The notes under the pieces are model-generated. The model saw only the letters and a list, made by a program, of their open reading frames with translations. It was not told the DNA's origin and made no database searches. This document shows positions 1 through 33,611 of a stretch of DNA of 33,611 bases, in pieces. The stretch's first letter is position 1; each line of letters begins with the position of its first letter. The translations under genes and the position numbers were made by a program. The stretch spans positions 1 to 33,611 of IMG/VR virus record IMGVR_UViG_3300045988_134784; one strand, given 5' to 3'. The DNA comes from a virus.

Positions 1-55
1 ACTTGAAGGGAAATCATAAGCTCTTTGAAGAGGCCCCTCTCCAGGTTTAATGCTC
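1..55. repeat. 55-bp exact terminal direct repeat, copy 1 (identical to 33557-33611); contig closes on itself
   Basis: Positions 1-55 (acttgaagggaaatcataag...ccaggtttaatgctc) recur exactly at 33557-33611. The repeat lies inside one continuous minus-strand reading frame. Confidence 0.95.
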
Positions 56-669
56 CATCCTTTACCTCTTGCTCCACCAAGCCAAATATTGCAAGATGAG
101 CTAGAGTAAAGATTGGGAAACATATCCTTTAATGGCTTATATGTATAAAGCTCAGGGAATTCGTTATAATATGTAATTATAAAGTCCTGTAAACGAGTCT
201 TAAAGAAATCCGCCTTATCTCTATAATACTTCTTAATTTGATTTACTTGACTTGCTTCAGCAGCAATATCTTTCTCATCATCAGTTCTCATAACTCCAAA
301 ATTACCAAGCTTATAAGATATAGGAATTACTATCTCGCTAAGTACTTGATAAAGTAAATAAGGCTGAACATAATAGTCTAATAGCTCTTTATATCTGTAG
401 TTATCAGAATCATCAATAGAATCACTTGGAAGTGGCTCAGGAGGTTCTATTGGATGAACTGGAGTATGAGGATCAATCCAATTAATACATTTCTTTTGTA
501 ATGCTTCCAATAGCTTAGTACCAATAGTTGACTGAAGCTCTACATCTTGGGCACTTGTGATGGCTGCTTGTAAATATTTACCCGATATATTGTTATCTAA
601 TGTAGAATTTGACTTTATATAGTCTTCTGAAATAAGCAGTACATTTCTATAGTTAAGTTGTTCCATCAT
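1..669 (-). CDS. hypothetical virion-module protein, 5' part of a gene that crosses the contig junction (229 aa in total; continues 33556 -> 33536)
   Basis: ATG at 667-669 and the frame is open down to position 1. After the wrap it ends at TAA 33536-33538. No in-frame TGA and no family recognised. Product begins MMEQLNYRNVLLISEDYIKS... and ends ...GPLQRAYDFPSSNNKKSK. Confidence 0.6.
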   Translation of the reverse strand, partial: MMEQLNYRNVLLISEDYIKSNSTLDNNISGKYLQAAITSAQDVELQSTIGTKLLEALQKKCINWIDPHTPVHPIEPPEPLPSDSIDDSDNYRYKELLDYYVQPYLLYQVLSEIVIPISYKLGNFGVMRTDDEKDIAAEASQVNQIKKYYRDKADFFKTRLQDFIITYYNEFPELYTYKPLKDMFPNLYSSSSCNIWLGGARGKGWSIKPGEGPLQRAYDFPSS

Positions 670-1261
670 AAATAAATTTATTGTTTTTATAAGGTCTATT
701 TTCTTTTAAAGCTAAATATAATCCAGAACGTTCTCCATTAACTGATTTAACAGCTTCTTTCATTGAATTATATCTTGCAATAAAATTCCCATTCATATCA
801 AATCTTAATATAGGCTTAACTCTAATAATTCGTCCTTTGGAAGCATTTCCAATTTTAATAAGTGTTTCCAAAGTATAGATTCCTTTCTTTCCTTTATTCC
901 AGGGTGTTTTACCTTTTTTAGAATTTGACATTTTTGCTCTACTCTCATTAGAAAAAGAATACCCGTATGTACCTTCTCCTCCTGATGTTATATTGTAACC
1001 ATTTTCAGGAGTATTTGTTTTATATTTATGTATCAATATCCTTTCTAATGTCTTAGCACAAGCTTCTGGTAAATTATCTTTAATTATGATATGTTCAAAT
1101 CCATCTCAGCTATATTTTTGTATCGCTTTATAAAAGTAAGCTTGAGTAGAGTATCCATATCCATTTTTTCACCTAGCTTGCACACTTTGTCCAGTAATGC
1201 CAAAATATAGCTTATTGTTATACTTATTTATATGGCAATAAACAGTATAATTATTCAACAT
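653..1261 (-). CDS. free-standing GIY-YIG homing endonuclease #1 (202 aa, 2 sense TGA)
   Basis: ATG 1259-1261, TAA 653-655. N-terminus YTVYCHINKYNNKLYFGITGQSVQAR[TGA]KNGYGY...KAIQKYS[TGA]DGFEH...NGYNITSGGEG is a GIY-YIG core. TGAs at 1169-1171 and 1106-1108 fall on the conserved RW and KYGW Trp positions. The C-terminus carries NUMOD-like KKGKTPWNKGKKG and a DNA-binding tail. The track shows only the 653-1036 fragment. Confidence 0.9.
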
Positions 1262-2318
1262 TTTGTTTGCTATCTTCTTGTCCATTTGGAGTTAAGCTAA
1301 AAGGAGTTATAGTTATTGAACCTTTCATTCCAAATATCTTATCAAATGTATCTACTATTTCGACCTGAATTGGTCTAACTACTGTACGATTATAAAGTTT
1401 AAAAGCTTCATTAAATTCTTGTTCGTTGAATCCACTTGAGTAGTTAAGGCCAAAAAGTACACTATTAGCTCTAAATGCGCAGAATATTTGCTCCCTTGTT
1501 CTTTCAGATAAAGCACTATATTTCTCATCAAAATCATCAGAGTCTAAACGCTCAATAGTAGTCTTATTTGTCTCATCATCATTATATGAAATAAGAACTC
1601 TACCAGCATTTTGAAATCCTGAGAATTTCTCATTAATATTCATCTCAATCTCTTCTTTAACTTCGTCTGTAGGCTGTCCATTATTAAAGTTAATGATAAT
1701 ATTACCCATAAATCCGTTATGAAGAGAATTTAGATGGAACTCATTAATATTCTTCTCAGTTTCGCAAGATAGGATAGCTGCACCATAAACAGGGACTGGA
1801 TATACTTTTCTTGTTATATAGCCCTTATTATAAACAACACTTGTAGGATTATCATCTGAATAATTAAATTTTGGATATTTGATAGCTTTAATAGACCAAG
1901 CAGACCAATCATCGGCATAATAGAATACTTCATTCTTTTCATCAGAACGAATCTTCATAAAGTCAAGATGATAGATCTCTGAAACTCTACCTAACATATC
2001 TCTAATTATTTGTAAAGCATAACCTCCAAATATCATCTTATCAATAGTGATTTTTCTCATTATATCAACTATTGTTTCACCTTTCTTATTTACAGTTATT
2101 TCAAATCCTGGTGCATTACATACAACATCATTCCCAACAATAAAGTCAGCAGTCCCATTAATGATAGATTGAAGAGTAGCTACATTTAAGTATAAATCCC
2201 ATAGATATAATGGATAGCGATTATCTTCTCCTCACATTATCATATCAGAACCTCTTTTCCTTGTTTCCGTTGGAAGAACGATGTTAGATTGAATAAAAGG
2301 ATCTAGGGCTGACATCAT
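1251..2318 (-). CDS. portal protein (355 aa, 1 sense TGA)
   Basis: The track ORF 1251-2060 extends upstream in frame through TGA 2232-2234 to ATG 2316-2318 (MMSALDPFIQSN...MIM[W]GEDNRYPLYLWDL...). The FSGFQNAGRVLISY...REQIFCAFRA pattern is typical of HK97-type portal proteins. TAA 1251-1253. Confidence 0.8.
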
Positions 2319-2322
2319 TATT

Positions 2323-2970
2323 TTACTTTTGTGCCCATTCTCATTTGTAGCCTTTACATTGTTTATTTTTTCCATAAAGTACTCTGTTAATATTTTTATA
2401 ACCACTTTTTTGTGCTTCTTTACAAGAATCTCATCTTTTAATAAAATTGCCGTCTAAATCTAATTGATTTACTGGTTTGCTTCACTTTTTACGTAGATTT
2501 TCTTTCTCCTCTTCAGTTCTATGTCTACCATACATACCATTCTTCTCTCCAGATCTAGATTCACTCATTTTCTTCCGAGTATCCTCACTACATTTTTGCA
2601 CTCCTTTTTTATCCTTATTTCAGGGATCTTTCCCAATTGTACCTCCGCCTCCTAGAGTTGAATTATATCCATTTTTAAATGTATCATATAAAGCTATATA
2701 TTTAATTTCAGATGCATCTAACTGTTTCTTTAACAACTCTTTTGAAGAACAGGAAAATATTTTAAGTATTTTATAATCTCAATTATCTATACCATATAAT
2801 CTGATTGCTTTATGAAAGTGATCATTATAACTTCTTGAATTTGAATTAAAACTATCAGCACAATGTTGTTTCCATCTTATATCAAATGACCTACAAGTTT
2901 GTCCAATATACATTTTTCCTGTTACCTTAGAGCGGACCAAATATATTTCTCCAGTTTTATTTTCGCTCAT
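2323..2970 (-). CDS. free-standing GIY-YIG homing endonuclease #2 (215 aa, 5 sense TGA)
   Basis: ATG 2968-2970 (MSENKTGEIYLVRSKVTGKMYIGQT...FDIRWKQH...KAIRLYGIDN). It continues through TGAs at 2779, 2620, 2482, 2431 and 2341 to TAA 2323-2325. The tail reads ...NGYNSTLGGGG...GKDP[W]NKDKKG...MYGRHRTEEEKENL...QLDLDGNFIKR[W]DSCKEAQ...CKGYK[W]EWAQK. The plus-strand track ORF 2477-2776 is its antisense shadow. Confidence 0.9.
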
Positions 2971-3427: not shown

Positions 3428-3449
3428 AAAGGAGACCTAAGCCTCCTTT
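3428..3449. terminator. stem-loop (aaaggag-N8-ctccttt) abutting repeat copy A
   Basis: 7-bp perfect inverted repeat 3428-3434 / 3443-3449, with T-rich flanks in both orientations. It lies in the intergenic gap between co-directional minus-strand genes. Confidence 0.45.
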
Positions 3450-3451
3450 AA

Positions 3452-3501
3452 TGTCAAGTTTTTTACTCACTCAAAGTACTAAGAAAAAATAAAAACTGAC
3501 A
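3452..3501 (+). repeat. 50-bp conserved intergenic element, copy A (TGTCA...TGACA inverted ends)
   Basis: tgtcaagttttttactcactcaaagtactaagaaaaaataaaaactgaca. The first 18 nt are identical to the copies at 13024 and 28400. It starts 1 nt after the TAA of the 3503-4474 gene. Confidence 0.8.
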
Positions 3502-3502
3502 A

Positions 3503-4474
3503 TTATGCTGACGCTAAAGTTCAGTTTTTAGAAGCAGCTAATGATTTCTGTTCCTCAGTAAGAGCATTATAAACAGAAGAATTAAATGTAATGGTCTGAG
3601 CTGTTTCCCCAGTTAAATCAATTACAGACTCCAATACATTATTAACAGAGGATTCAGTTAAACCAGATAAATTTGTTAAATTAAAGGACTTATTTGTCAC
3701 AACCCCACCAAAATCAGTCAAATTTGGCATATAATAACTAGATCCGAATGTGTATCCAAATGCAGTACCCTCTAAAGCTGTATTATTAGCTATAGTTATT
3801 TTACCTAATGATTTTAAAGATGCACAATTCATAAACATCCTATTTGTTTGTCCACTACATTGAGGTGCATATATATCAGGTATTGTTTCTAATAATTCAC
3901 AATTCTCAAATATGCCTGAAAGAGAAGTTGCTATTGAAAAATCCATAGTAGGTAATATTTTTAACCTTCTGCATCCATAGAAAGTTTGAACAAACTGTAC
4001 AAGTTTTAAAGTGGCATTTATCTCAACTAAATGTTGACAATTATAAAATAATGAAGAACCATTAGAACTAGTACTATTTAATAAGGTTATTTTAGAAATT
4101 TGATTACTAGAAGAGTAAGAATGAAATAAATCATTCATAAGTTTATTCTGACAATCAAATGTAAAAGTATCTCCTGCACCTCATTCACAACCATAGAAAA
4201 AATAATTATAATTTGATTTGTTCATTATAAAATAATTTTCTAGTTTGTCTTCTCCGCCATCTCTAAATCTATGCATATTAGAAAAACTTAATGATATTGG
4301 AATAATACTTAAATCTATTTTTCCGCCACCTCCAGAAATCTGTCCTATCTTATCTGCATAACTTCTAAAGGTATCGGAATCTGATACAGCAACACCTTTA
4401 GCTACAATAGCATCTTTAATGGCACTCTTAGTACCTTCAAGATACGTTAATTTATCAGAAATTGTATTTGCCAT
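3503..4474 (-). CDS. tail fibre / receptor-binding protein with BspA/DUF285-type leucine-rich repeats, paralogue 1 (323 aa, 2 sense TGA)
   Basis: ATG 4472-4474. Track ORFs 4181-4474 and 3521-4138 share one frame and are joined by TGA 4181-4183. The apparent end TGA 3521-3523 is followed by 5 more codons to TAA 3503-3505 (...AASKN[W]TLASA). Repeats of the form F.nC..L..I (FYNCQHLVEI, FYGCRRLKIL, FENCELLETI, FMNCASLKSL). Confidence 0.7.
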
Positions 4475-4494
4475 ATTATATATTTAAAATGACT

Positions 4495-5154
4495 TTATTC
4501 ATTTGGAATTTCACCATTAATTGTATCAAGAGTAGTTGAAATATTACCAATCTGAGCTTGAACTGCTGAGATTTCTCCATCTAACTCTGTCATCTTTGTA
4601 TTATATGCATCTGTAGTTACATAGTTTGATAACTCACTTTTATCTGCTTTAAGTGCAACTTCATCTTTAGTAGCTAATCCAGATACATCAGGAATCTTAT
4701 TCTCTACAGCTGTAAGCTCTTCTTTAGTAGCAAAATCACTAGTATCAGGAATTTCTGCTTTAGTTGCATAATTACTTAAATCTACAGATAGTTGCAAACC
4801 TTCTCCATTTCTATGTAAAGATAGAGGTTGATTAGCTTGGAATACTTCCATCTTAGAAGTTTCTAACTCCTCAACTTCCCCTTTAAGATTAGTAATCTCA
4901 GTATTAATTGGAGCAAGTTTAGCATCAATAGATTGATCTACTAAAGGTGGAACTTGATCTTCAATACTTTCTGTTACTTTAGTATTAATTAACTCTTCTG
5001 CTTTCTCTTCAGAAATGTAATTACCTTTAGGTTGGAATCTTTCATCTGCTTCAATCTTAGTATAAGAGCCAACAGGAAGTTGTCCAGACTCGATACCACA
5101 TTTCTTACTTACATAGAAAGTTTGTGTATTTTTAGTATTCTTAAGTATAATCAT
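4495..5154 (-). CDS. coiled-coil fibre-like structural protein (219 aa)
   Basis: Intact ORF, ATG 5152-5154, TAA 4495-4497. Repeated ...ATK.E.. heptad-like segments. It shares the motif LSVDLS.Y with the 6320-8926 fibre. Confidence 0.6.
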   Translation of the reverse strand: MIILKNTKNTQTFYVSKKCGIESGQLPVGSYTKIEADERFQPKGNYISEEKAEELINTKVTESIEDQVPPLVDQSIDAKLAPINTEITNLKGEVEELETSKMEVFQANQPLSLHRNGEGLQLSVDLSNYATKAEIPDTSDFATKEELTAVENKIPDVSGLATKDEVALKADKSELSNYVTTDAYNTKMTELDGEISAVQAQIGNISTTLDTINGEIPNE

Positions 5155-5156
5155 CG

Positions 5157-5393
5157 TTATTTAACTTTTATTGATTCTTCATACTCTTTTGAAGCTGTTT
5201 TAGCAGTTTCTTTATATTCAGAATCCTGCTCTAATGTTATCTCTCTTAAATGTTCTAAATCACAATTTAATGGACAAATACACTCTTTAAATGAGTTATA
5301 CCCTTTAATATCCATTTCGTCTTTATAGTTAGTAAGAAGCATATTATCTTCAGGTTTAACTACTTTATACTTTTCTTTAATTTCAATTTTCAT
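5157..5393 (-). CDS. hypothetical small protein (78 aa)
   Basis: Intact ORF, ATG 5391-5393, TAA 5157-5159, tightly packed between fibre genes. Confidence 0.5.
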   Translation of the reverse strand: MKIEIKEKYKVVKPEDNMLLTNYKDEMDIKGYNSFKECICPLNCDLEHLREITLEQDSEYKETAKTASKEYEESIKVK

Positions 5394-5400
5394 AGTGTAT

Positions 5401-6318
5401 TTAATTAGAATATGATATTGTTCATCCTTTAGAAACTATCTGGGCTTTTTGATCTTCAGTTAAAGAGTCAAAGATTACTTTATTAAAAACAATAGTAGGA
5501 TTCTTAGATGCGTCTGAATATAGTCCTTCTATTATATTATTTATAGATTGAACAGTAAGTGCAGGTAATCCTCCTAAATGCAATGTATATGTACTCATAG
5601 TGACTCCCTTCCCAATATTTGTAAAACCTCCAATATCTGTAAGTAGGGTGAAATCTTTAGATTCTTGATCTCTCTCATCATCAGTTCTGAATAAATCAGA
5701 AAAATTACTCCAGTTACTTGCATCATATTGCGGAACAGATTGAAGCCTATAACAGTACCTAAACATTTGATAAACAGTAACTTTTTTAGTTGAAGAAAAA
5801 GTTATCTGAGGTGCTGTTTTTAATTGTTCTGAATATCTAAATAATCCAGTACAATCTACAGCATTAGATAGATCTAATGGATCTATTTCTGTAGCTCCAA
5901 TTCCAGATAAGGCACCATACATACTCTTTTTACCAATAAAAATATCAGGTAATATATATGTTAAACTACGACATCCAGCAAATAAATAATACAAATCAGT
6001 ATCTGTATTTTCAGTAATATATTTTTGAGCATCTATAGATGTAGTTAACTGATACCGTAATGATGAATATGCTCTAAATATAGAAGTTTTTGGGTTAGAT
6101 GAAGTAGGATTTATATATCAACTAATAACATCTGGATTATTACATTCTGTAATTATTGAATTTACACTTCCTAAATATTGTCTTGCAACTGCTTTACGAA
6201 AAGTATCATCTATAAATGGAATTGGAGGACAAGGCCAGACTTTGGTACTGCCAACATAAATAGCAGTACCTTGTCTGTCACCTACATAAAATGTTTTTAA
6301 ATCATCTCTAATATTCAT
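5401..6318 (-). CDS. tail fibre / receptor-binding protein with BspA/DUF285-type leucine-rich repeats, paralogue 2 (305 aa, 2 sense TGA)
   Basis: Track ORFs 6118-6318 and 5422-5994 share one frame and are joined through TGA 6118-6120. The apparent end TGA 5422-5424 is followed by 6 codons to TAA 5401-5403 (...IVSKG[W]TISYSN). Motifs FAGCRSLTYI, FRYSEQLKTA and FRYCYRLQSV. The C-terminal 40 aa are alignable with the 3503-4474 product. Confidence 0.7.
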
Positions 6319-6319
6319 A

Positions 6320-8926
6320 TTATTCTACAATTAAATATTGTGTATTAGGATCTTTAGTAGATAATCTATCATACTCTGATTGAGTTACCACAAGAATAGT
6401 ATGAACTTGTGGTTGAGTTCCACTTCCATAAGTAACTGGATTAGAAACACTCTCAATATCTATATTTCCACTACCTAACAAGCTTTCTCCATTAACTGTC
6501 TTGATATTTGTTCCGCTAACTAAAGTGTCTTGTTTATTTCCTAATCCTGCATTTAATTCAGTTTCTGTAACATATTCATCAGGAATAGAAGTTAAAAATC
6601 CACTATCATTAGTAAGCTCAGATGTCTTAGTTGGTACACCTAAATCCTCAAGACTCTTATTACCACTAAGTTCAACAGAATTGATTTGAGGCTTATTGGT
6701 CAATTGATTATAATCAGTAGTACCTCCTGAAATATCTAAGTTACCAGAACCAAGAATATCCTGTCCATTTATGGTTTTTATATTAGTCCCAGAGACTAAT
6801 TGCTCCTGATAATTATGATAACTAGTATCTGCTGATACTCCAGTTGGAGTAATAGTAGTTTGAACAAGAGTATGATTAGCTGTAGTACTTTCAAAATGGA
6901 AAGTAGCTTGAATATTTTCTCCTGAAACAAAACATACTTCTGGAGCTGCTATATCACCATAACCTAGAATATTTACATAATAAAGCTCAAATGGTGTTTT
7001 ATTAGCTATAGCATTCTTAACAGCAGCGAAATCTCCAGAAAGATGAGTAGTGGAATTTATAAATAGAAATGGAATATTAGAACCACTTTCAATTTCTATA
7101 TTACCTTCTCCAAGTAAAGACTGACTATTGATTGTTTTGATATTAGTTCCACTTACAAGTAAGTCTTGCTTAGTAGCCATCTCTTTATCAAGAGCATCTA
7201 TCTTATTTCCATCTTCTTCTTGCTTTGTTTTAATAATTGATATATCTGAAGTATTAGTTGCTACTTGAGTAGATAAAGATTCTACTACAGAAGAATCAGC
7301 TTTACCAGCAAGTTCTGTTTTTGTTGCATAATCTCCTACAGGCTGTTTAGTAGCAAGCTGCTCATCAACATAAGTCTTATCTGCTTTACCTGCTAAATCT
7401 CCAGAAACCTCTGTTTCAGTTACAAAGTTAGAATCATTAGTAAGCTCACTAACTTTAGTTGGAATATCACTCTTTAAAGCATAATCTCCTTTATCTTGTT
7501 TTGCATCAATCTTACTTTGTAAAGAAGATCTTAGAGTCTCAATTTCCTCATTAACTGAATCGTTAGTTGCATAATCACCAACTGGTTGGTATCCAGATAA
7601 ATCTACAGATAACTGAGTCTTATCTCCATTAAAAGCTAATGGAGCTTGAGGAGCAAATACTCCTTGTTTTTCCTCAAGTTTGGCATCTACTTCTTCTTTA
7701 GTATATCCTTTATTAGTAAGATCAACCTCAGTAACTTTAACAGTCATATTACCATTATTTACTAAGATTGCATTAATAACTACTAATACACCATTATCTT
7801 GGAAATAATAGCCATATAAATCAATAGTTTCGGGATGCTCAATAGTTGCAACAGGAATAACTATAATATCACCTTTATATGTAATCTGGCAGAATAAATA
7901 GAAGTCCAGATTAGTTCTAATAAAGTCATAGATATGTTTCTGTCTTACAGGATCATTCTCATCTAAATTAAGTAAGAAATGATTCTCAAAAGCAGAGATT
8001 ACATTATCTATAATAGATATATTCTTTCCTGCTGTAAGCGTTTCCTGTTTTGAAGCTATCTCTTTATTAATAGCTGTATTTAAAGCATCAATTTCAGCTT
8101 TGGTATATTTATCTGCTAATTGTGCATATAGAGGACCATTAACAATACCAGCTTGGTTAGTCTCTGTATTATATATTGGAAGTTCAACTGCTTCTCCAGT
8201 TTGATTACCAAATACAGGAGCTAAAGTAACTTTAGATGGGACTGATTGAATATTAATGGCAGGTACGATTGAAGCTGCTCCAGATAATTCAGTTCCATTT
8301 AAAGATGGTTTGTTACGAATAGTATTATAATCTGCAGAAATAGTATTCTCTTCAATTACTATACCATCACCTTGGTTTAATTTATTCTGTTTAGAATTTA
8401 ATGCACTTTCAGTAGCTTCTTTTGTAAGATAATTATCTTCAACTCATTTTTCAGTAGCATATCCATCTAAGCTACTAATAAACCCACTATCATTAGTTAA
8501 TTGTGAAGTTTTTGTTGGTATCTCAGATTTATCGGCTTTATTGGCAACTGCATCTGAAATTTCAGTTGTAACCTCTTCTTTAGTTGGATAATCAGCTAAT
8601 CGTTCAGTTATCTGATTATCAATATTTTCAGCACTTGGAATAGTACTCTTTATTTGCTCTAACTCAGAATTAATAGTAACAATATCTTCAGATGACGCTA
8701 ATCCCAACTCTTCTGAAGTCATATTACCATTTAACTCAATACTATTGATCTCAGGTTTATCCTGAAGATCAAAATAGCTATTAGTAGCTAACTGAGAACC
8801 ATCCATAACCTTAACTTCATCATCCTTGTCAATAACAATAACTTTAGTCACATTTGACTTATCTATTGTTTCAACTTCAAGGACATTAAGATAAGGAAGA
8901 ATTGTCTTTTCAGTTTCGTTTGTCAT
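6320..8926 (-). CDS. long tail fibre protein (868 aa, 1 sense TGA)
   Basis: Track ORFs 8444-8926 and 6320-7747 are in one frame. I translated 7748-8443 by hand and found no stop and no start codon. The junction TGA is at 8444-8446. Reiterated fibre motifs: PTK(T/V)S(E/Q)LTNDS(G/N)F x3, LVSGTNIKT(I/V)N..S.LG.GN(I/L) x3, KP.(I/L)N..EL(S/N)G x3. Confidence 0.85.
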
Positions 8927-8969
8927 ATTATTTTTCTATAAAATATAAATTATTCATTATGTGGTATAT

Positions 8970-9006
8970 AAACAAAATAAGGGGCAAGTAAATTAATACT
9001 CGCCCC
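8970..9006 (-). terminator. rho-independent-type terminator after the capsid block
   Basis: Stem 8981-8990 / 8997-9006 (ggggcaagta / tactcgcccc, 9 of 10 bp) with a 6-nt loop. On the minus strand it is followed by ttattttgtt (8970-8980). It lies 11 nt downstream of the TAA at 9017. Confidence 0.65.
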
Positions 9007-9016
9007 TCTTCTGTTG

Positions 9017-12341: not shown

Positions 12342-12351
12342 TAACCTCTTT

Positions 12352-19341: not shown

Positions 19342-19343
19342 AA

Positions 19344-22012: not shown

Positions 22013-22052
22013 TTTTGTTAAAATATATTATTTTATATATTAGCAGCTAATG

Positions 22053-25714: not shown

Positions 25715-25958
25715 AACATATTTTGTTTCTAATGTTAGTTATTGTCCTTGCTATAGTCGTATGACTAATTCCCAGAATCTTCCCAACTTCTCTATAACTT
25801 CGATATTCAGCATATAAGATAATTATGGTCTTATCTGCTCTATTTAATGCCTCTCATTTCGGATAAATTGCAAGTAATCTATCATCCATCTCTGTAAAGG
25901 TATCTATTTCAAAGTTATACTCAATTAATAAATCATCAATATTAATCTTCTGCTTCAT
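25692..25958 (-). CDS. sigma-70 region-4-like HTH protein (88 aa, 1 sense TGA); absent from the ORF track
   Basis: ATG 25956-25958, TGA 25854-25856, TAA 25692-25694. ...LNRADKTIIILYAEYRSYREVGKILGISHTTIARTITNIRNKI resembles sigma region 4.2 / LuxR-type HTH. Confidence 0.5.
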
Positions 25959-26250
25959 TTAACCAATCCTCTAAATTATCCGTTTGTTGTTCTAATGGCT
26001 CTTTAAATATCTCATAGTACTTTTTATATTGGTAGTAGTATCTACTATTCTTTGAAAACCAATTATTCTTAAATACTCTTGTAATCCAATACTTCAGCTC
26101 ATTCTTACTATCTAATGACTGAAGCTTGGAATTAGATGTTTCCAGAAGTGCAATGCAGACCATTTGTGTGCAATCGTCATCTGCACCAAATTTTTCTTTT
26201 AACTCCATAATAAACGGATAGTATTTCTCTATTATTTCATTGTTATTCAT
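25942..26250 (-). CDS. sigma-70 region-2-like protein (102 aa)
   Basis: Intact ORF. ...DDCTQMVCIALLE...NELKYWITRVFKNNWFSKNSRYY resembles the ECF sigma region 2 pattern (D..Q......f..WL..I..N...D..R). It ends 17 nt inside the next ORF, in a different frame. Confidence 0.45.
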   Translation of the reverse strand: MNNNEIIEKYYPFIMELKEKFGADDDCTQMVCIALLETSNSKLQSLDSKNELKYWITRVFKNNWFSKNSRYYYQYKKYYEIFKEPLEQQTDNLEDWLNEAED

Positions 26251-26734
26251 ATTCCCAAATAAACCCTCCAGCTGTTTTTCGCTGACCTTTAAGAACTTTT
26301 ACAATGTTTCTGGATTGTATATTAAGTCCCCGTTCAGCATCTATTGCGGAATCTCATCTCTTAATCAAACTTCCATCTAATGATAGCTGTCTAATTGCTT
26401 TCTTATGAGAAATTCCTACTTTAATATTATGACTGCCATAATTATTGTTATATTCATAAGTACAGTACTCTAAATTATCTAAGTTATTATTTAGCTTATT
26501 TTCATCCTTATGGTTAATACATAAGTCACTTTTACCTATGAAAACTTCTGCCACTAGTCTATGTATTAGATATTTCTTTTGCCCAAACTGATTATATAAA
26601 GTAACATAATAATATCCACTATTTTGGAGTTGAGGTTTGATATTTTTCGGAACTGAGGTTCTAGTACTCCAGACCGAACCGTCAGTTCCTATTAAATAGT
26701 TTTCATATCCAGGTATTGCCTTATATGTCGTCAT
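26243..26734 (-). CDS. HNH homing endonuclease with NUMOD4-like motif, copy 2 (163 aa, 1 sense TGA)
   Basis: YKAIPGYENYLIGTDGSVWS (NUMOD4-like), then RLVAEVF...INHKDENKLNNNLDNLEYCT (HNH). It continues through TGA 26354-26356 (...LDGSLIKR[W]DSAIDAERG...AGGFIWEYE) to TAA 26243-26245. Confidence 0.85.
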
Positions 26735-27167: not shown

Positions 27168-27407
27168 TTATCTTACATTATGAATTTTTAAGGTTACATC
27201 ACAATACTGTTCATATAATTCAGATACTTCTGAACTTCCAGGATTATACCACATTACAGAGTCTAATTTATGCTGAAGTTCTGCCTGTTCTAATCTAAGC
27301 TCAAATGTTTTAGTTTGGTAGTCTCCATAAGCATTATATACTCTAATACCAGCTATAATAAAGCTAAGTACTAATAATCCAGCTAATATTTTATTTATCT
27401 TTTTCAT
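27168..27407 (-). CDS. small membrane-anchored protein (79 aa)
   Basis: MKKINKILAGLLVLSFIIAGI (N-terminal TM/signal anchor) followed by a helical ectodomain. The track start at 27449 overlaps the upstream gene and is unlikely to be used. Confidence 0.55.
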   Translation of the reverse strand: MKKINKILAGLLVLSFIIAGIRVYNAYGDYQTKTFELRLEQAELQHKLDSVMWYNPGSSEVSELYEQYCDVTLKIHNVR

Positions 27408-27418: not shown

Positions 27419-27598
27419 TTAGAAAGAAATACCTAAACCAAAAAACCAAGAGGATTTCTTTACCTTTTCATTGGTTTCAATCTCCTTTAATGCCTCATTA
27501 CATAATTCTTGAGCTTTCTCAATAGAACCATCTTCAGTAATCTTACCATCTAATATATCAAGAAAATATTCAAGTGCTTCAATTTGTTTAGTTTTCAT
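27419..27598 (-). CDS. hypothetical small protein (59 aa), first gene of the minus-strand unit
   Basis: ATG 27596-27598, TAA 27419-27421. Product MKTKQIEALEYFLDILDGKITEDGSIEKAQELCNEALKEIETNEKVKKSSWFFGLGISF. Below the track size cut-off. Confidence 0.45.
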   Translation of the reverse strand: MKTKQIEALEYFLDILDGKITEDGSIEKAQELCNEALKEIETNEKVKKSSWFFGLGISF

Positions 27599-27644: not shown

Positions 27645-27676
27645 CAAATATACAACAAAAAATTCCAATTTCCAAA
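27645..27676 (-). promoter_or_regulatory. Bacteroidota-type promoter candidate (TTTG-N20-TATATTTG) for the minus-strand unit
   Basis: On the minus strand, TTTG is at 27676-27673 and TATATTTG at 27652-27645, with 20 nt between them. It lies about 45 nt upstream of ATG 27598. Confidence 0.5.
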
Positions 27677-27752: not shown

Positions 27753-28238
27753 ATGATTTACGTAATTAAATTAACTAAAACGAATTTTATTAAGGTTGGT
27801 TACACTACTAATATAAGTGGCAGACTAACTGCTTATAAAAATACTATTCCAAATGAAATGATAGAATTTTTTATAGCAAAAGAAGGAACTAGAGATGATG
27901 AAAATTATTATAGAGATAAATATAGAGCATATAAAACTAAGAGTAATTCAGAATGGTTAAAACTTCCAGATGAATTAATTGTAGAGCTATTATCAGATTT
28001 TAAGAGTGCAAATAATATAAAAATAAATAAACAAAGCAAAAAAGAATGATATAACGAGAATATAGATAAATTAGTAGAATTGTGCTTATCTGGAGTATCA
28101 TTAAATAGAGCTGCAATTCAATTAAATGCACTAAATTGAGATTGAATAAAATATGCTAATCAAAGATATGAAAAAGAGAATGGTAAAAAATTAACAAAAC
28201 TTTGGGTAAGAAAAATCAAGAAAAGTTTTGTAGAATAA
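27753..28238 (+). CDS. T5orf172 (GIY-YIG-superfamily) domain protein with C-terminal HTH-like region (161 aa, 3 sense TGA)
   Basis: ATG 27753 (MIYVIKLTKTNFIKVGYTTNISGRLTAY...SEWLKLPDELI is the T5orf172 pattern). The track ORF stops at TGA 28047, but the frame continues ([W]YNENIDKLVELCLSGVSLNRAAIQLNALN[W]D[W]IKYANQRY...) to TAA 28236-28238. The track N-terminal extension from 27615 is low-complexity promoter DNA. Confidence 0.7.
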
Positions 28239-28257
28239 AAATTTATTATTATATTTG
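28227..28257 (+). promoter_or_regulatory. Bacteroidota-type promoter candidate P1 (TTTG-N19-TATATTTG)
   Basis: TTTG at 28227-28230 and TATATTTG at 28250-28257. No ORF follows before the terminator at 28365. Confidence 0.45.
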
Positions 28258-28304
28258 TAGTGTAAAGAAAAAAATAATTTTTTATTAAAATAATACCCAA
28301 ATTA

Positions 28305-28336
28305 TTTGGAAGTATAAAAATAATGTATTATATTTG
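28305..28336 (+). promoter_or_regulatory. Bacteroidota-type promoter candidate P2 (TTTG-N20-TATATTTG)
   Basis: TTTG at 28305-28308 and TATATTTG at 28329-28336, about 30 nt upstream of the terminator hairpin. Confidence 0.45.
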
Positions 28337-28364
28337 CAGTATGAAACTAAAACTAATAATTCTA

Positions 28365-28390
28365 GGCAGGTGAAAGTCCTGCCACTTTTT
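28365..28390 (+). terminator. rho-independent-type terminator (ggcagg-tgaaagt-cctgcc-acttttt)
   Basis: Perfect 6-bp GC-rich stem 28365-28370 / 28378-28383, a 7-nt loop and the T-tract 28384-28390. Confidence 0.65.
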
Positions 28391-28399
28391 GAATCTTAC

Positions 28400-28449
28400 T
28401 GTCAAGTTTTTTACTCACTTTTAGTAGTAAGAAAATAAAAATATTGACA
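28400..28449 (+). repeat. 50-bp conserved intergenic element, copy C, immediately upstream of the helicase gene
   Basis: tgtcaagttttttactcacttttagtagtaagaaaataaaaatattgaca. It ends in TTGACA 30 nt before ATG 28480. The internal arms ttttttactcact / agtagtaagaaaa can pair. Confidence 0.8.
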
Positions 28450-28479
28450 AAAACTTTAACTATTTAAATTATTAAAATT

Positions 28480-30201
28480 ATGAAAACATATTTAAACAAT
28501 TTGATTAATGAGTTGCCAACTAACTGCTTATTTGATAAAGGAAAAGTTGGATGTGGAGGAACTTCAATGGCAATTGAATGTGATAAGCCTTATGTTATTT
28601 GTGTTCCATTTACAAGCTTAGTTGAAAATAAAATTCAACAATATCCAAATGAAAGACGTAAAGAGAAGATATTTGGAGTTTATGCTGGAGTTACTATTAA
28701 AGAGATTAAAGATTATGTAGATAGTGTTAAATGTCCTAAAATTATTGTTACATATAATTCACTACCAAAAGTTATTTCTGCTGTTAATACTAAAGAATAT
28801 AGTTTATTAGTAGATGAATATCATATACTATTTAATCAGTATAGCTTTAGAAAGGATGCGATTAAACCTGTTTTAGAGAATTATACATTATTTAAGGATT
28901 TTACATTTATGACTGCTACACCTCTTGAAGAAGAGTTTGTATTAGATGAATTAAAAGATTTAGAATTAGTAAAACAAGAATGGGATGATGTAATTGAAAC
29001 TAAAGTACAAGCTGTTAAATGTAAGAATGTTGAAGCTTCAACTATTAAATTAATTAATGCTGTTCTTAATAATCAGGTTGAAGGTAATGTTTATATATTT
29101 GTAAATTCTGTAGACTTTATAAAGAATCTTATTCAGAAAGCTAAACTTACAGAAGATAATACAAGAGTTATATATTCTAAAAACAATAAAACTAAATTAT
29201 CAATTCATAATTCTACAGTATTAGATGAACCTAAGAAAATAAATTTATTAACTTCAACAGTATTTGAAGGTTCTGATATTTATGATGAAAATGGAAGAAT
29301 TGTAGTAGTAAGTGATGCTCAAAAAGCTCAAACTCTTCTTGATATCTCTACTTCTATTCAGCAGATTGCAGGAAGAATTAGAAATAGTAAATATTTAAAC
29401 TGGATAACACATCTTTACTCAGCAACAAGATATGCAGATATTAGTTATGAAGACTTTAAAAAGAAGAATATTCAGAATATTGAGGAAACTAAGATTGCTG
29501 TAGATGCTTATAATTCAATGCCTGAAGTTGCAAGAAAGAAGCTTAAGGAATTTACATCTGATGCTTATATTCAAGTAAATGATAACTTTACTTTTACTTT
29601 TGATCCTAATATGGCCAAAGTGGACATATTTAACTTTAAAGTGACAAGAGGCTTATATTCTATTAGAACTAATCTTAATAAGGAATATATAAAGAATGGG
29701 TTTAAAAAAGTAGTAGAATGTGAAGATAATTCTATTAAGATTGATTTTGAATCTGATAATAAACCATTTAAAGATTTAATTAAAGAAGTAAGAGCTGAGT
29801 GGGAAAATAAGTTTAAATTAAACACTCCTATATTAAATGATGCTATTATTAAATATCCTTGGTTACCTGAAGCTATTAGTAAATTAGGATTTGAAAAGAT
29901 GGCAAGTTTAAAATATTGTATTTCAGATATTAAAGATGCCTTATTAAAAAAATCTAATAAAAGTGCAGATAACAAAGCCGCTAAGAAGTTGAATCAATCA
30001 GTTACTCTTGGAATGTGGTATTCTAATTCTGATATTAAAAAGTTTATTAAAGAAGCCTATGAAATTAGTGATATTACTATTACACCAAAAGCAACAGAAA
30101 TTAATAAATATTATGAAGTTAAAAAATGCCAGAAAAGAGTAAATGGTAAACAAACTGAAGGTTATGTAATTATTAATAAAAAATTTGTATTTAATAAATA
30201 A
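28480..30201 (+). CDS. superfamily-2 (DEAD/DEAH-like) helicase, probable replication protein (573 aa)
   Basis: Intact ORF with no TGA. Motif I GKVGCGGTS, motif II LLVDEYH, motif III MTATP, motif VI QQIAGRIRN. The C-terminal ~230 aa are unassigned. Confidence 0.8.
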   Translation: MKTYLNNLINELPTNCLFDKGKVGCGGTSMAIECDKPYVICVPFTSLVENKIQQYPNERRKEKIFGVYAGVTIKEIKDYVDSVKCPKIIVTYNSLPKVISAVNTKEYSLLVDEYHILFNQYSFRKDAIKPVLENYTLFKDFTFMTATPLEEEFVLDELKDLELVKQEWDDVIETKVQAVKCKNVEASTIKLINAVLNNQVEGNVYIFVNSVDFIKNLIQKAKLTEDNTRVIYSKNNKTKLSIHNSTVLDEPKKINLLTSTVFEGSDIYDENGRIVVVSDAQKAQTLLDISTSIQQIAGRIRNSKYLNWITHLYSATRYADISYEDFKKKNIQNIEETKIAVDAYNSMPEVARKKLKEFTSDAYIQVNDNFTFTFDPNMAKVDIFNFKVTRGLYSIRTNLNKEYIKNGFKKVVECEDNSIKIDFESDNKPFKDLIKEVRAEWENKFKLNTPILNDAIIKYPWLPEAISKLGFEKMASLKYCISDIKDALLKKSNKSADNKAAKKLNQSVTLGMWYSNSDIKKFIKEAYEISDITITPKATEINKYYEVKKCQKRVNGKQTEGYVIINKKFVFNK

Positions 30202-30215
30202 AAATATTATATTTG
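30184..30215 (+). promoter_or_regulatory. Bacteroidota-type promoter candidate (TTTG-N20-TATATTTG) overlapping the helicase stop
   Basis: TTTG at 30184-30187 and TATATTTG at 30208-30215. The ATG of the next ORF is 5 nt downstream (30220), implying a leaderless or near-leaderless mRNA. Confidence 0.45.
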
Positions 30216-30219: not shown

Positions 30220-30381
30220 ATGGAAGGTGATATTAAAGAAACAATTAAACAAACAGAAGAGTATATTAAAGAATTAGATAAATGAATACTCGAATGTAAA
30301 GAATCTACTAAAAGATTTGGTGATATTATAGATAAAGTATTAAAAGATAAAGATTATATGTTTATTTCTAAATTTGATTAA
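30220..30381 (+). CDS. hypothetical small protein (53 aa, 1 sense TGA)
   Basis: Product MEGDIKETIKQTEEYIKELDK[W]ILECKESTKRFGDIIDKVLKDKDYMFISKFD. TGA 30283-30285, TAA 30379-30381. Confidence 0.45.
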
Positions 30382-30383
30382 TT

Positions 30384-30524
30384 ATGAATGATTATTTATT
30401 TAAAAAACTTGAAGAACTAGAATATAGAATAGTTCAATTAGAAAACCAGAATAGAGGTTTAGTCTGGGAAGAAGTAGAAGAAATGCCAAAACCAGAAATT
30501 TCTAATGCAACTTATATTGACTAA
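30384..30524 (+). CDS. hypothetical small coiled-coil protein (46 aa)
   Basis: Product MNDYLFKKLEELEYRIVQLENQNRGLVWEEVEEMPKPEISNATYID. It starts 2 nt after the previous stop. Confidence 0.4.
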   Translation: MNDYLFKKLEELEYRIVQLENQNRGLVWEEVEEMPKPEISNATYID

Positions 30525-30525
30525 T

Positions 30526-30669
30526 ATGAAATATCAAACATATAAAGTATGTATAAACGGAGTGTATTATGTATATGTAATACCAGAGAATAGTAAGTTT
30601 TTAGTAGACTTACAAACAGGAGATCTAATACCTAAAGAAGATGAGAAATTATTTGAGATAATGGAATAA
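30526..30669 (+). CDS. hypothetical small protein (47 aa)
   Basis: Product MKYQTYKVCINGVYYVYVIPENSKFLVDLQTGDLIPKEDEKLFEIME. It starts 1 nt after the previous stop and is followed by the strong terminator. Confidence 0.4.
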   Translation: MKYQTYKVCINGVYYVYVIPENSKFLVDLQTGDLIPKEDEKLFEIME

Positions 30670-30672
30670 ACA

Positions 30673-30707
30673 AAAAGGAGGGTTATTTGCCCTCCTTTTC
30701 TTTTTTA
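30673..30707. terminator. bidirectional rho-independent-type terminator between the convergent units
   Basis: Perfect 10-bp stem aaaaggaggg (30673-30682) / ccctcctttt (30690-30699) with a 7-nt loop, then cttttttatt. In the reverse direction the stem is followed by tttttg. It sits between TAA 30669 (+) and TAA 30708 (-). Confidence 0.8.
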
Positions 30708-31277
30708 TTAAACATATCTTCACTTGAATCCTTTAGCTGTATTTGCTAATCCACCACATACTCTACTAATAGCTCCTCTATCAGTTCCTACAGATTTGGC
30801 TGCTTCTGTGCAACTTTCATACTCTTGAATAAAATTACCATCTAAATCATACTGAGCTACTTTACGACATCTTTGTTTGTTATGAGCATCTACTTTATCT
30901 CTTCAAGATTCTGGGCAATTATGTTTCTTTCCCTTATTAGAATTAGACAGTTTCTTCTTTCATTCAGAATTAAATTTGACTCCGTAATTGCCTCCTTCTC
31001 CTCCAGGTTTCAAATTTAAACACATAGGATCAGTGTCCCATTTATCTCCAATTAGTTTGTATTCTAATTTAGATAATTCATCTGCATTAGTGCAAGTTGC
31101 CAAAATAATCTTTTGGTATGCATTAGGGAATCTTTTGTAATAATTAGTAATAATCCTTCCTGATCCTTTATATGGATCTTTATTTATGTCTTTACCTCTA
31201 TAAATCCTTTTCCCAATATAATACTTGCCTCTTAATGTACCTGCAGTTAAAATTATTTTATAACAATAGTAAAACAT
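30708..31277 (-). CDS. free-standing GIY-YIG homing endonuclease #5 (189 aa, 3 sense TGA)
   Basis: Track ORF 30960-31277 (YCYKIILTAGTLRGKYYIGKR...NLKPGGEGG) continues through TGAs at 30960, 30903 and 30720 (...NSE[W]KKKLSNSNKGKKHNCPES[W]RDKV...AQYDLDGNFIQEYESCTEAAKSVG...AKGFK[W]RYV) to TAA 30708-30710. The start overlaps the endolysin stop as TAATG. Confidence 0.9.
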
Positions 31278-31729
31278 TATATAATAGTAAATTTCTGTCG
31301 TCTTTGCATCCCGTCTTTATTCTTTAATCCCAAGTGTATTCAACTTGCTATACCATTCTTAGGCTTTTCATATATCAACTGGTCTCAATTTAATTCTTCA
31401 ATAGCTTCAGCAATCCAACTTTGGAATACTTTCATATTACCATTAATTGGAGATATATCTGCTGCATACCCTGTTAAATGAGCAGAAGTTGAAGATCCTC
31501 CCACTGCTTTATTAAGCTCCTTATTCCTAAAACCAGAGGAAATCCTGATGCCTGCATTGCCAAGCTGATTGTCATCACAATACTTTGCCCATCTATCTCT
31601 TATTGGGTCTAAAAGCTTCTCGACCAACTCTATTAGGTGCTCTGTTATACTCTCATCTGGAGTGTTATTTATATGCTTAATTGAAGCAGTATCAGATCTT
31701 GTTAATTCTTCGAGTGTGAAATACTTCAT
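31277..31729 (-). CDS. peptidase M15 (D-Ala-D-Ala carboxypeptidase / L-Ala-D-Glu peptidase type) endolysin (150 aa, 2 sense TGA)
   Basis: RISSGFRNKELNKAVGGSSTSAHLTGYAADI is the SxHxxGxAxD zinc-site pattern. It continues through TGA 31385 and TGA 31340 (...NGIAS[W]IHLGLKN...) to TAA 31277-31279. Confidence 0.8.
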
Positions 31730-31888: not shown

Positions 31889-32545
31889 TTATATTTTATT
31901 TAAAATTATACTTATCTGTATTCCAGCTCTTCTTAGATGTACTCAAGTATCATAAGGCATAGGTGTATCACAGAATGATAAACCTAAAATGCCAATATCT
32001 TTATCCTCAGTCTTTAAATAAAATACTGCTATTTCATTCACTCTGTTGGATTTAAATGCATAATATAATCTTGGATCATCTGCTTCTAAACTATCTATAT
32101 TACCAAACCATCCATCATTCTTAGAAAACTCTATAATTGAAGTATAGTCAGATAACAGGAAATTTTTATAATGGCTACTTACAGATCGTATTCCTGGTTT
32201 AACTTCCTCGGCATTCATTACTCCATAAGTAAACGGAAGTCCTCCTAATCCAGTAGTTCCATTATGATATTCAATAACCCAAGCTCTATCAGCATTGGTA
32301 CTTTGAAGCAATTCTTTAAGCTTATATTTAATCTTTAAAGTTGCTTCATTTCTTGCAATAGTTTTAGAATTGTGAGTTTGTTCAATATAGGTTACAACCT
32401 TATTATAAACAATAGAGGGATTAAGTGTAATAACCATTACATAGGATATAAATATTAATCCAATCCCTGCTTTAAATATCTTTAGTAATCCATATTTATC
32501 AACCCATTCTAATACTTTACCAAACCAATTTAATTTATTTTCCAT
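31889..32545 (-). CDS. membrane-anchored hypothetical protein (218 aa, 1 sense TGA)
   Basis: Track ORF 31943-32545 plus a 17-codon extension through TGA 31943-31945 to TAA 31889-31891. One N-terminal TM helix (AGIGLIFISYVMVITL); the globular domain is unassigned. Confidence 0.6.
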
Positions 32546-33126
32546 TACATATATTTGAAAGTGTATCCATAAGTTTGTTTTTGTTTACCTTTTAAAACAG
32601 CACATATTAAACAGCTGCTAATATTTAATTCTCTTGAAGCTGCTCTTATACTTTTATAGGATTTAACAAAATTACCATTTAAATCATACTGAGAAATTGC
32701 TTTAGTTCTATTATTTTGATTTTTCTTACTAATAATAGATTTAGTTTCCTCAGAATGGTGTCTACCGTAAAATGGATTCTTATTTCCAATTCTTGTTTTG
32801 GCAAACTCAGAGATAATTTTCTTAGTTTCTTTAGAAATAACGGGATGATTATTAGAATCTGTTCTATTGTAGCCAAATCGTAAATCAGTTGTATTATAAT
32901 AACCAAATAGATATTTTTCAAGATATTTCATTTCTGATTCACTATCTACATAATATACAGTATGTTGAATATTATCTCAACCATATTTCTTAATTGGTTT
33001 ATATACAAACTGATCTTTATAACCATCGCCATTTTTTCATCTATAATTAATCTCTTGAGTTGTTAATCCTACGTACCTTTTTCCATTAGGAAATATATGT
33101 ACATAAACTACATACTGTCTTCACAT
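32545..33126 (-). CDS. free-standing GIY-YIG homing endonuclease #6 (193 aa, 3 sense TGA)
   Basis: ATG 33124-33126. M[W]RQYVVYVHIFPNGKRYVGLTTQEINYR[W]KNGDGYKDQFVYKPIKKYG[W]DNIQHTV... with TGAs at 33121, 33037 and 32977, then the track ORF 32545-32931 (NKNPFYGRHHSEETK...QYDLNGNFVKSY...YGYTFKYM). Confidence 0.9.
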
Positions 33127-33533
33127 ACTCCAATAATATTGTCAACTTGGAAATCAGCTCTAACAAACACTCCACAGGTAATATCTTTGAACTTTTGATA
33201 GAATGGAGTAAAAATTAAAGGATAAGAAATATCAACTTCTGGATATTGGTTATTAAATCGGTTAATTATATTAGTTAATGCTAATATTCCAGCTGATTGC
33301 TCTTCAAGCTGATTATTATCAGTCTCATCCCATCTTGATACGAAGTATAGGTTTAAAGAGTAAGTAATAGTATCTTCATCTACACTAAAAGTATTAGGTG
33401 TTATATAGAACACATTATACTCAATAGTTGGTAAGCTATTTAACTCATAAATATCTTTACTTCCTACAAAATTGATGTTTGGCTCTTCTAATGCACAAGC
33501 TTTTAAATTGCTAATTATCTCATAGTAGGTCAT
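33108..33533 (-). CDS. hypothetical virion-module protein (141 aa)
   Basis: Intact ORF, ATG 33531-33533, TAG 33108-33110. No family recognised. Confidence 0.55.
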   Translation of the reverse strand: MTYYEIISNLKACALEEPNINFVGSKDIYELNSLPTIEYNVFYITPNTFSVDEDTITYSLNLYFVSRWDETDNNQLEEQSAGILALTNIINRFNNQYPEVDISYPLIFTPFYQKFKDITCGVFVRADFQVDNIIGVCEDSM

Positions 33534-33535
33534 AA

Positions 33536-33611
33536 TTACTTACTCTTTTTATTGTTACTTGAAGGGAAATCATAAGCTCTTTGAAGAGGCCCCTCTCCAG
33601 GTTTAATGCTC
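33536..33611 (-). CDS. 3' end of the junction-spanning gene listed at 1-669 (33557-33611 duplicates 1-55)
   Basis: The same frame as 1-669 continues ...YDFPSSNNKKSK to TAA 33536-33538, 2 nt before the ATG of the next gene. Confidence 0.6.
   Translation of the reverse strand, partial: SIKPGEGPLQRAYDFPSSNNKKSK
33557..33611. repeat. 55-bp exact terminal direct repeat, copy 2
   Basis: Identical to 1-55. Confidence 0.95.

Follow-up and report, generated by a model that had tools for sequence, protein, structure and literature searches.

A small tRNA-free gut phage with TGA read as tryptophan, most likely in standard-code Bacteroidales

How can a phage use TGA as a sense codon when its genome carries no visible means of decoding it? 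This question is raised by IMG/VR virus record IMGVR_UViG_3300045988_134784, a stretch of 33,611 nt that was analysed over its full length and is called the window here. Bases 1-55 of the window are identical to bases 33557-33611. This terminal overlap indicates a circular assembly of 33,556 unique bp and a complete genome. We are confident, short of certainty, that the window holds the entire genome of a tailed phage that looks virulent, that this phage belongs to an abundant human-gut clade, and that it infects Bacteroidales. Our best explanation of the whole, to which we give an even chance, is a tRNA-free, TGA-recoded phage of standard-code Bacteroidales whose UGA codons are read by host tRNA-Trp.

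TGA codons and the search for a decoder

Open reading frames (ORFs) of at least 100 residues cover 0.83 of the window under the standard code and 0.95 of it once TGA is read as sense. This reading yields 39 tightly packed genes and three small plus-strand ORFs. Among the stop codons of the 39 genes there are 35 TAA, 3 TAG and no TGA. One further gene spans the circular junction and has a TAA stop, read by eye from the junction sequence. In-frame TGA occurs 49 times, in 23 of the 39 genes (about 60%), and TGG 88 times. TGA thus makes up 36% of the Trp codons in the window, and 43% in the clade, while codons ending in A are elsewhere preferred 2:1 to 7:1.

Alignments identified the encoded residue. 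When TGA codons of about 60 related loci were compared with the window (about 1,850 aligned TGAs), they were opposite Trp 1492 times, Tyr 96 times, Phe 67 times and Gly 18 times. When relatives are compared, both TGA and TGG occur in 106 of the 249 Trp columns. At 24 TGA positions of the window, standard-code relatives have Trp at 8, Tyr at 7, Phe at 2 and Gly at none. Judged from these alignments, TGA encodes Trp (code 4), not Gly (code 25). Phages of the code-25 Absconditabacteria and Gracilibacteria resemble the window phage in using TGA as sense throughout and in having no phage suppressor. However, TGA is Gly in these phages, whereas in the window it aligns to Trp and other aromatic residues and almost never to Gly.

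No decoder was found in the genome. ARAGORN detected no tRNA gene, and as the circular genome is complete, the tRNA scans took in all of it. Rfam gave no match in the window at gathering thresholds, and no tRNA or transfer-messenger RNA (tmRNA) match even at E<=10. Relaxed ARAGORN runs (intron, low-threshold and mitochondrial modes) returned noise within ORFs and no credible UCA loop. No tRNA was found in any scanned locus of the small-phage clade (clade set, 62 loci, 0.98 Mb in total). Pfam and PHROGs scans of the proteome revealed no release-factor, aminoacyl-tRNA-synthetase or tRNA-modifying domain, and the early and unknown ORFs gave neither a translation-related domain nor an informative match. 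A phage-encoded suppressor tRNA(UCA), release factor 1 (RF1) or tryptophanyl-tRNA synthetase (TrpRS), a frequent though not universal trait of code-4 gut phages, is therefore not seen in the window. An earlier interpretation made without database searches (the sequence-only reading) had reported the same: no tRNA-like sequence, no tRNA-Trp(UCA) suppressor, and no release-factor or TrpRS gene. These absences were borne out, and ARAGORN, relaxed modes included, uncovered no suppressor.

The sequence-only reading took this as a departure from the published picture of recoded gut phages. Surveys do not agree with it. Suppressor tRNAs were found in 35% (Borges et al., 10.1101/2021.08.26.457843) or 15% (Cook et al.) of code-4 phages, and in 13% of TAG-recoded genomes from Dutch cohorts. 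The opal-recoded zeta crAss-like phages 3075_90106, ctddo16, ctvkg4 and ctPTU4 have 18-25 tRNAs and no suppressor (PMC12386605), and host-encoded or divergent suppressors have been discussed for unmatched recoding in crAss-like phages (Yutin 2021, PMC7886860). As surveys detect suppressors in no more than 15-35% of code-4 phages, a recoded phage with no visible machinery is what is commonly seen, not a departure. The statement that either host, Bacteroidota or natively code 4, would be unusual was likewise too strong, as the Bacteroidales answer is one already known, if so far unexplained. The puzzle exists, but the literature has documented it before, and the window phage is an unusually small, tRNA-free member of the TGA-recoded gut phages.

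Placement of TGA among the genes

Sense TGA is distributed unevenly over the genome. The genes needed to describe this distribution are listed below. Matches in the Pfam and PHROGs scans comprised terminase, portal, capsid, S78 protease, M15_3 peptidase, LRR_5, SF2-helicase-like and nine homing-endonuclease-like proteins.

1251-2375, minus strand: portal protein; one sense TGA, aligned to Trp or Tyr in standard-code relatives
3503-8926, minus strand: fibre/receptor-binding region with an LRR_5 protein (3503-4474), a related 305-residue protein (5401-6318) and an 868-residue fibre (6320-8926); site, in relatives, of a module common to crAss-like phages
9017-9541, minus strand: 174-residue abundant virion protein (major tail or decoration protein, judged by position), adjoining the capsid gene
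9580-10482, minus strand: major capsid protein; no TGA, four TGG
11135-12945, minus strand: scaffold-like protein (11135-11746, no TGA) and S78_2 prohead protease (12352-12945), with a GIY-YIG endonuclease gene between them
13140-21521, minus strand: low-copy tail genes, including a tape-measure-like protein of 922 residues (three TGAs), a 999-residue protein (six TGAs) and a 725-residue protein (four TGAs)
22918-24201, minus strand: large terminase subunit (TerL); one sense TGA
24865-25197, minus strand: putative 110-residue holin-like protein, recognized solely from three hydrophobic segments; two TGAs
25692-26250, minus strand: helix-turn-helix (HTH)/sigma-70-region-4-like protein (25692-25958, one TGA) and adjacent 102-residue protein (25942-26250, no TGA), which may be transcription regulators
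27753-28238, plus strand: T5orf172/MUG113 protein; three sense TGAs
28480-30201, plus strand: 573-residue SF2-helicase-like early protein; no TGA, five TGG
30220-30669, plus strand: three small ORFs (30220-30381 with one TGA, 30384-30524, 30527-30669), with a bidirectional terminator on their 3' side at 30673-30699
31277-31729, minus strand: Peptidase_M15_3 endolysin (Pfam E 2e-13); two sense TGAs
31889-32545, minus strand: 218-residue membrane protein adjoining the lysin; TGA-rich in the clade
653-1285 (minus strand), 2323-2970, 10497-11135, 11739-12341, 25166-25714, 26243-26734, 27753-28238 (plus strand), 30708-31277 and 32545-33126: nine homing-endonuclease-like genes (Pfam/PHROGs)

Several genes are nearly free of TGA across the clade. 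It accounts for none of 60 Trp codons in the capsid gene, none of 46 in the 174-residue virion gene beside it, none of 7 in the scaffold-like gene and none of 39 in the ORF at 27168. The helicase-like early gene has TGA at 2 of 173 Trp codons, the other 171 being TGG. The clade TGA fraction is 0.10 for the S78_2 prohead protease and 0.20 for the portal, 0.41 for the lysin, 0.61 for the holin-like protein and 0.65 for the membrane protein adjoining the lysin. It is 0.55-0.75 for the homing-endonuclease-like genes and reaches 0.84-0.90 for the LRR_5 protein and the 868-residue fibre; the related 305-residue protein is at 0.30. Within the window only, the TGA-free gene set has 0 of 14 Trp codons as TGA, compared to 49 of 123 elsewhere (Fisher p=0.002). 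The helicase-like early gene is thus kept standard and lysis and late genes are recoded, and the capsid, neighbouring virion and scaffold genes are also free of TGA. TGA is accepted in genes whose product is needed in small amounts and removed from those whose product is needed in bulk or early. Such a gene-specific purge suggests that TGA decoding works but is costly or delayed.

The sequence-only reading had described sense TGAs in both transcription units, early-type genes included, as if use of the codon were indiscriminate. The codons are there: three in the T5orf172 gene and one each in the ORF at 30220, the HTH/sigma-70-region-4-like ORF and the ORF at 26721. However, the main early gene, encoding the helicase-like protein, has none, and the clade keeps this gene as well as the capsid and 174-residue virion genes nearly free of TGA. 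The recoded ‘early’ T5orf172 gene is accessory and homing-endonuclease-like, being carried by 17 loci compared to 36 with the helicase. The picture of indiscriminate use does not hold.

The pattern in part resembles that of the TGA-recoded Jade and Agate phages (10.1101/2021.08.26.457843), which use code 4 on predicted standard-code hosts, as is probable for the window phage. Their lysis genes are enriched for recoding, their replication genes are kept standard, and their standard-code relatives already lack TGA stops, as in the family of the window phage. There are also clear differences. Jade phages carry an operon of suppressor tRNA, RF1 and TrpRS, and some of the Agate phages, which are about 127 kb, carry suppressor tRNAs; the window has none of these. 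The major capsid gene is recoded in Jade and Agate, whereas in the window it is TGA-free.

The nine homing-endonuclease-like genes (GIY-YIG/NUMOD, HNH/NUMOD4 and T5orf172 types) occupy about 5.3 kb, or 16% of the 33.5-kb genome. They are wedged among core genes (portal, capsid, scaffold and protease) and are the most TGA-rich gene class. Being TGA-rich, they would be functional only in a code-4 setting.

Relatives, host signals and crAss-like partners

The clade is abundant in the human gut. An identical contig is present in human-gut metagenomes (ENA ERZ1311704 NODE_591_length_33611; sample SRR413676 of the Qin type 2 diabetes cohort). The capsid protein has 3,554 homologues, of which the best 120 are all at least 88% identical, and the longest contigs for these best 120 never exceed about 33.6 kb. 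This argues for a clade of small phages that is abundant and shows no sign of integration. Among GenBank phages there is neither a nucleotide nor a capsid match to the window, and TerL has only remote matches to Thermus and haloarchaeal phages (at most 29% identity), so no cultured relative gives the host. These TerL matches, the unmatched capsid and the 33.5-kb genome also place the phage outside Crassvirales.

Relatives in IMG/VR all use TGA as sense, both those with TerL identities of 82-99% and a deep branch at 47%. Syntenic relatives are also found in GTDB genomes. One, which uses the standard code, lies in a 49-kb Rikenellaceae contig beside genes for a Phage_int_SAM_5 integrase, an excisionase, a flavodoxin, an aminotransferase and NhaC. 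The standard-code relatives (L067, L069-L071, L073 and L074) have TAA-dominated stops; in L067 these are 11 TAA, 1 TAG and no TGA. Another syntenic relative, L068 (CAVCAD010000156.1, from a Bacteroidaceae bin), has 49% capsid identity and 30% G+C and is recoded at TAG (code 15), with no tRNA in the 16 kb examined. In L068, recoding has arisen a second time and independently within this family of phages. A family with codes 4, 15 and 11 fits phage-driven recoding, not adaptation to a code-4 host. Some relatives come from bins labelled ‘Clostridia’ or ‘Coprococcus’. We distrust these labels because the contigs lack Shine-Dalgarno sites.

Signals of gene expression in the window point to Bacteroidota. 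The motif TTTG-N19/20-TATATTTG, of the Bacteroides sigma-A type, occurs four times compared to 1.07 expected, a count reached in 2 of 100 shuffles. All four copies, listed below, are intergenic and correctly oriented.

27645-27676, minus strand: Bacteroidota-type promoter TTTG-N20-TATATTTG, heading the long minus-strand unit
28227-28257 and 28305-28336 (28227-28336), plus strand: two Bacteroidota-type promoters upstream of the helicase-like gene
30184-30215, plus strand: fourth promoter motif, ahead of the three small ORFs

The motif upstream of the helicase gene is retained in 28 of 34 relatives despite diverged spacers (TTTG/TAnnTTTG type). Sigma-70-type promoters are not enriched in the window. 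Neither the window nor any relative has Shine-Dalgarno motifs above background, and this is also true of the contigs binned as Clostridia or Coprococcus. On both points, the four promoter motifs and the missing Shine-Dalgarno sequences, the sequence-only reading was right.

Several intergenic elements accompany these promoters. A partly palindromic repeat of about 55 nt lies at 3448-3502, 13024-13064 and 28396-28450 on the plus strand, with a diverged copy near 22110-22160 on the minus strand. Its core, TGTCAAGTTTTTTACTCA, is present in exactly 3 copies compared to 0.13 expected, all on the plus strand irrespective of how the adjacent genes are oriented, and is kept in the helicase leaders of relatives. 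The repeat may act as an operator, as a promoter specific to the phage or as part of a terminator. In the leader of the helicase-like gene (28337-28479) there is also a hairpin followed by a T-run, GGCAGG-tgaaagt-CCTGCC, at 28365-28383, about 30 nt 3' of the promoter. Three relatives have a different hairpin and T-run at this position. Replacement of one hairpin by another suggests an attenuator or a short RNA. Two further regions are structured. The first, at 8927-9016 on the minus strand (z=-7.5), is a long, terminator-like hairpin after the 174-residue virion gene. The second, at 22013-22276 (z about -4 to -6), is within the largest non-coding gap.

The lysin and fibre genes are informative in the same respect. 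The M15 cell-wall peptidase and the BspA-type leucine-rich repeats of the sequence-only reading were recovered in Pfam (M15_3, E 2e-13, and LRR_5, E 1.8e-6), whereas its BACON-like domain gave no Pfam match at E<=0.01. Its holin stands as a candidate, judged by transmembrane segments. The nearest lysin homologues outside the clade (about 50% identity) are encoded in contractile-injection-system loci of Bacteroidales, with Mfa-like genes alongside; one homologue is in an Alistipes-like chromosome. In loci L137-L139 and L176-L179 these homologues are conserved parts of the injection systems, located between PAAR or gp25 genes and the Mfa-like gene.

The clade also exchanges genes with large crAss-like phages. 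In the 148.6-kb IMG/VR contig IMGVR_UViG_3300045988_175865 (L027/L039/L075/L142/L166/L169), about 119 kb (118.8) of a TGA-recoded crAss-like phage is fused, within a tail-fibre gene and with the reading frame kept, to a small-phage genome that is almost complete. We considered a prophage with host DNA and rejected it, as the contig is a crAss-like genome joined to a small phage. TerL of L076, a contig 99.8% identical to the large-phage portion, matches only Crassvirales. In bona fide small-phage contigs the fibre module measures 1,682 nt, is 89-95% identical to 13 large TGA-recoded crAss-like contigs and has an identical breakpoint. The joint is most likely the result of the assembler crossing a module that is truly common to both phages, given the 89-95% identity in independent contigs. 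The common module contains seven in-frame TGAs, all at Trp. The crAss-like partners also carry a homologous pair of M15_3 lysin and membrane protein. Recent exchange of a TGA-containing receptor-binding module implies that both phages enter the same host cells and share a decoding environment. Cultured Crassvirales are known from Bacteroidota only.

Large phages of this type are among the closest known parallels. Like the window phage, the zeta and unmatched crAss-like phages (PMC12386605, PMC7886860) are human-gut phages of low G+C in which TGA is Trp and TAA dominates the stops. They have recoded lysis and structural genes, no detectable Sup-TCA suppressor and a predicted Bacteroidota host, and crAss-like phages exchange genes directly with the window clade. 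In contrast to the 33.5-kb window, which has no tRNA and no polymerase, they measure 155-190 kb and carry 18-34 tRNAs and their own RNA and DNA polymerases. Two observations on the partners are recorded here. In one (L076 5410-5761), an insert of about 350 nt that has a match of HNH-endonuclease type interrupts the portal gene, which fits the intron- and intein-rich zeta group. Another TGA-recoded crAss-like phage (L168 19118-19541; IMGVR_UViG_3300045988_161810) has a full-length tmRNA (Rfam 68.5 bits, E 2e-24) with a tag ending in ...AQVAFAA.

Taken together, the promoters, the lack of Shine-Dalgarno sequences, the prophage relative, the TAG-recoded relative, the module exchange with crAss-like phages and the lysin homologues indicate that the host is most likely a member of Bacteroidales, and we infer that it uses the standard code. 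The Bacteroidota-type signals pointed out by the sequence-only reading are thus backed by the Rikenellaceae prophage relative, by the crAss-like exchange and by the Bacteroidales lysin homologues. A Mollicutes-type host is unlikely, since the lysin, the type of promoter and the missing Shine-Dalgarno sequences all contradict it. A phage of such a host would be expected to have TGA as the prevailing Trp codon in all genes, compared to a TGA fraction of 0.36 for the window and 0.43 for its clade. It would also face no peptidoglycan, whereas the window encodes a Peptidase_M15_3 with homologues in Bacteroidales. Mycoplasma and Spiroplasma phages, in which TGA is likewise Trp and no suppressor tRNA is needed, infect wall-less hosts. 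The window phage differs from them in its M15 lysin, its Bacteroidota-type promoters, its lack of Shine-Dalgarno sequences, its under-used and gene-specific TGA and its family members on other codes.

Possible routes to decoding

For the mechanism we propose, tentatively and as a possibility we would not bet on, that release factor 2 (RF2) loses the competition for UGA, which is then read by host tRNA-Trp(CCA). The phage ends its genes only with TAA or TAG, both of which RF1 would read. The most likely cause would be a small early phage protein, itself TGA-free, that neutralises RF2 by disabling or out-competing it. Free of this competition, the ordinary tRNA-Trp(CCA) of the host could read UGA as a near-cognate codon, and no suppressor tRNA would be needed. 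Infection would turn the Bacteroidales cell into a leaky code-4 cell, in which the placement of TGA would determine protein stoichiometry and might also shut down the host. In E. coli with an RF2 blind to UGA, about 80% of the residues inserted at UGA are Trp, delivered by native tRNA-Trp(CCA) (PMC11903333). Relief from RF2 competition would account for Trp as the inserted residue, for true stops that are all readable by RF1, for imperfect decoding and hence the purge of TGA from high-copy proteins, and for the lack of suppressors in most code-4 phages.

Several points weigh against this proposal and the explanation of which it is part. No candidate RF2 inhibitor was identified, the early ORFs having no informative match in Pfam or PHROGs. 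The 999-residue protein with six TGAs requires efficient read-through at each site, which near-cognate reading in Bacteroidales may not deliver. The nucleotide 3' of sense TGA is biased in the window (p=0.03) and not over unique clade sites (p=0.60), and this base was dropped as a sign of RF2 competition. The host was assigned from indirect signals. Finally, the TGA pattern would also fit a limiting suppressor supplied in trans.

Supply of a suppressor tRNA(UCA) in trans, by a co-resident TGA-recoded crAss-like phage or a host-borne mobile element, is the first alternative, and we regard it as unlikely. The TGA-containing fibre module common to the small phage and the 13 large contigs, the shared lysin and membrane-protein pair, and the in-frame joint of the 148.6-kb contig, which shows co-occurrence and recombination, all favour it, and host-encoded suppressors were proposed by Yutin et al. 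for the same gap (PMC7886860). The tRNA block of the partners, however, comprises Met, Leu(UAA), Leu(UAG), Lys and Ile tRNAs and two odd tRNA-like genes, and no tRNA(UCA) was found in the parts examined, which were 77 kb from the joined contig plus some 50 kb from a genome of 167.5 kb. As this coverage is partial, the helper idea is weakened only. The odd genes (L169 7600-7704 and 7840-7968; also in L168) carry insertions of 32 and 59 nt in their variable regions; their anticodon loops are atypical, and neither shows a UCA anticodon. The great abundance of the clade (more than 3,500 capsid homologues) and its full set of virion and lysis genes argue for autonomy. In addition, a constitutive opal suppressor would be harmful to a host such as the sampled Bacteroidales, in whose loci about a quarter of genes end with TGA (about 20% in typical Alistipes).

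The second alternative, that the host is a peptidoglycan-bearing bacterium with a non-standard code, in which UGA natively means Trp or no longer ends translation, appears improbable to us. It would explain why recoding without tRNA extends clade-wide to 47% TerL identity, and why an unrelated crAss-like lineage on the same host is also TGA-recoded with no Sup-TCA in the parts examined. A possible host of this kind was the Alistipes-like metagenome-assembled genome (MAG) GCA_020026395.1 (JAHHQM010000005.1 113972-144340), in which 27 consecutive genes have 19 TAA, 8 TAG and no TGA stops, and no in-frame TGA. In the syntenic region of A. putredinis, TGA ends 4 of 20 genes. A TGA-free host lineage was rejected because L183, with 94% RlmD identity to this MAG, has TGA stops in 2 of 10 genes; typical Alistipes have them in about 20%. 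The signal is probably due to chance. Other data also oppose a native code-4 host. TGA is only 36% of Trp codons despite the 2:1 to 7:1 preference for A-ending codons, the most abundant proteins are TGA-free, close family members use code 15 or 11, and Mollicutes are contradicted as described above. We know of no code-4 Bacteroidales from the literature.

A non-canonical suppressor RNA hidden in the genome (split, permuted, intron-containing or armless), as raised by Borges et al. (10.1101/2021.08.26.457843) and Yutin et al. (PMC7886860), is very improbable: ARAGORN did miss the two odd partner genes that Rfam found (34.7 and 32.8 bits), and several intergenic regions of the window are strongly structured (z -4 to -7.5), but these regions resemble terminator hairpins or a repeated palindromic element rather than cloverleaves, coding density is about 95%, and the Rfam, relaxed ARAGORN and clade scans reported above gave no tRNA.

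The favoured explanation, a standard-code Bacteroidales host whose tRNA-Trp reads UGA, bears on questions beyond this genome. Through a common receptor-binding module that contains TGA, the clade connects a small tailed phage with TGA-recoded crAss-like phages. For such a module to work, a recipient has to decode TGA as Trp, and the genetic code may therefore be a barrier that defines a gene-exchange community. For annotation, genomes of this kind need table 4; otherwise most tail, lysis and endonuclease genes are lost. How recoded phages without suppressor tRNAs decode their genes is an acknowledged open question, and surveys place 65-85% of code-4 phages in this group. The window clade shrinks the decoding problem to about 45 genes and no tRNA, with hundreds of natural variants and a set of TGA-free early ORFs that can be listed: one at about 27420-27597, recognized by eye, and those at 27168-27407, 30384-30524, 30527-30669 and 24510-24842. 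If tRNA-free, RF2-based code switching is true, it could also account for the recoded phages, a majority, that have no suppressor tRNAs.

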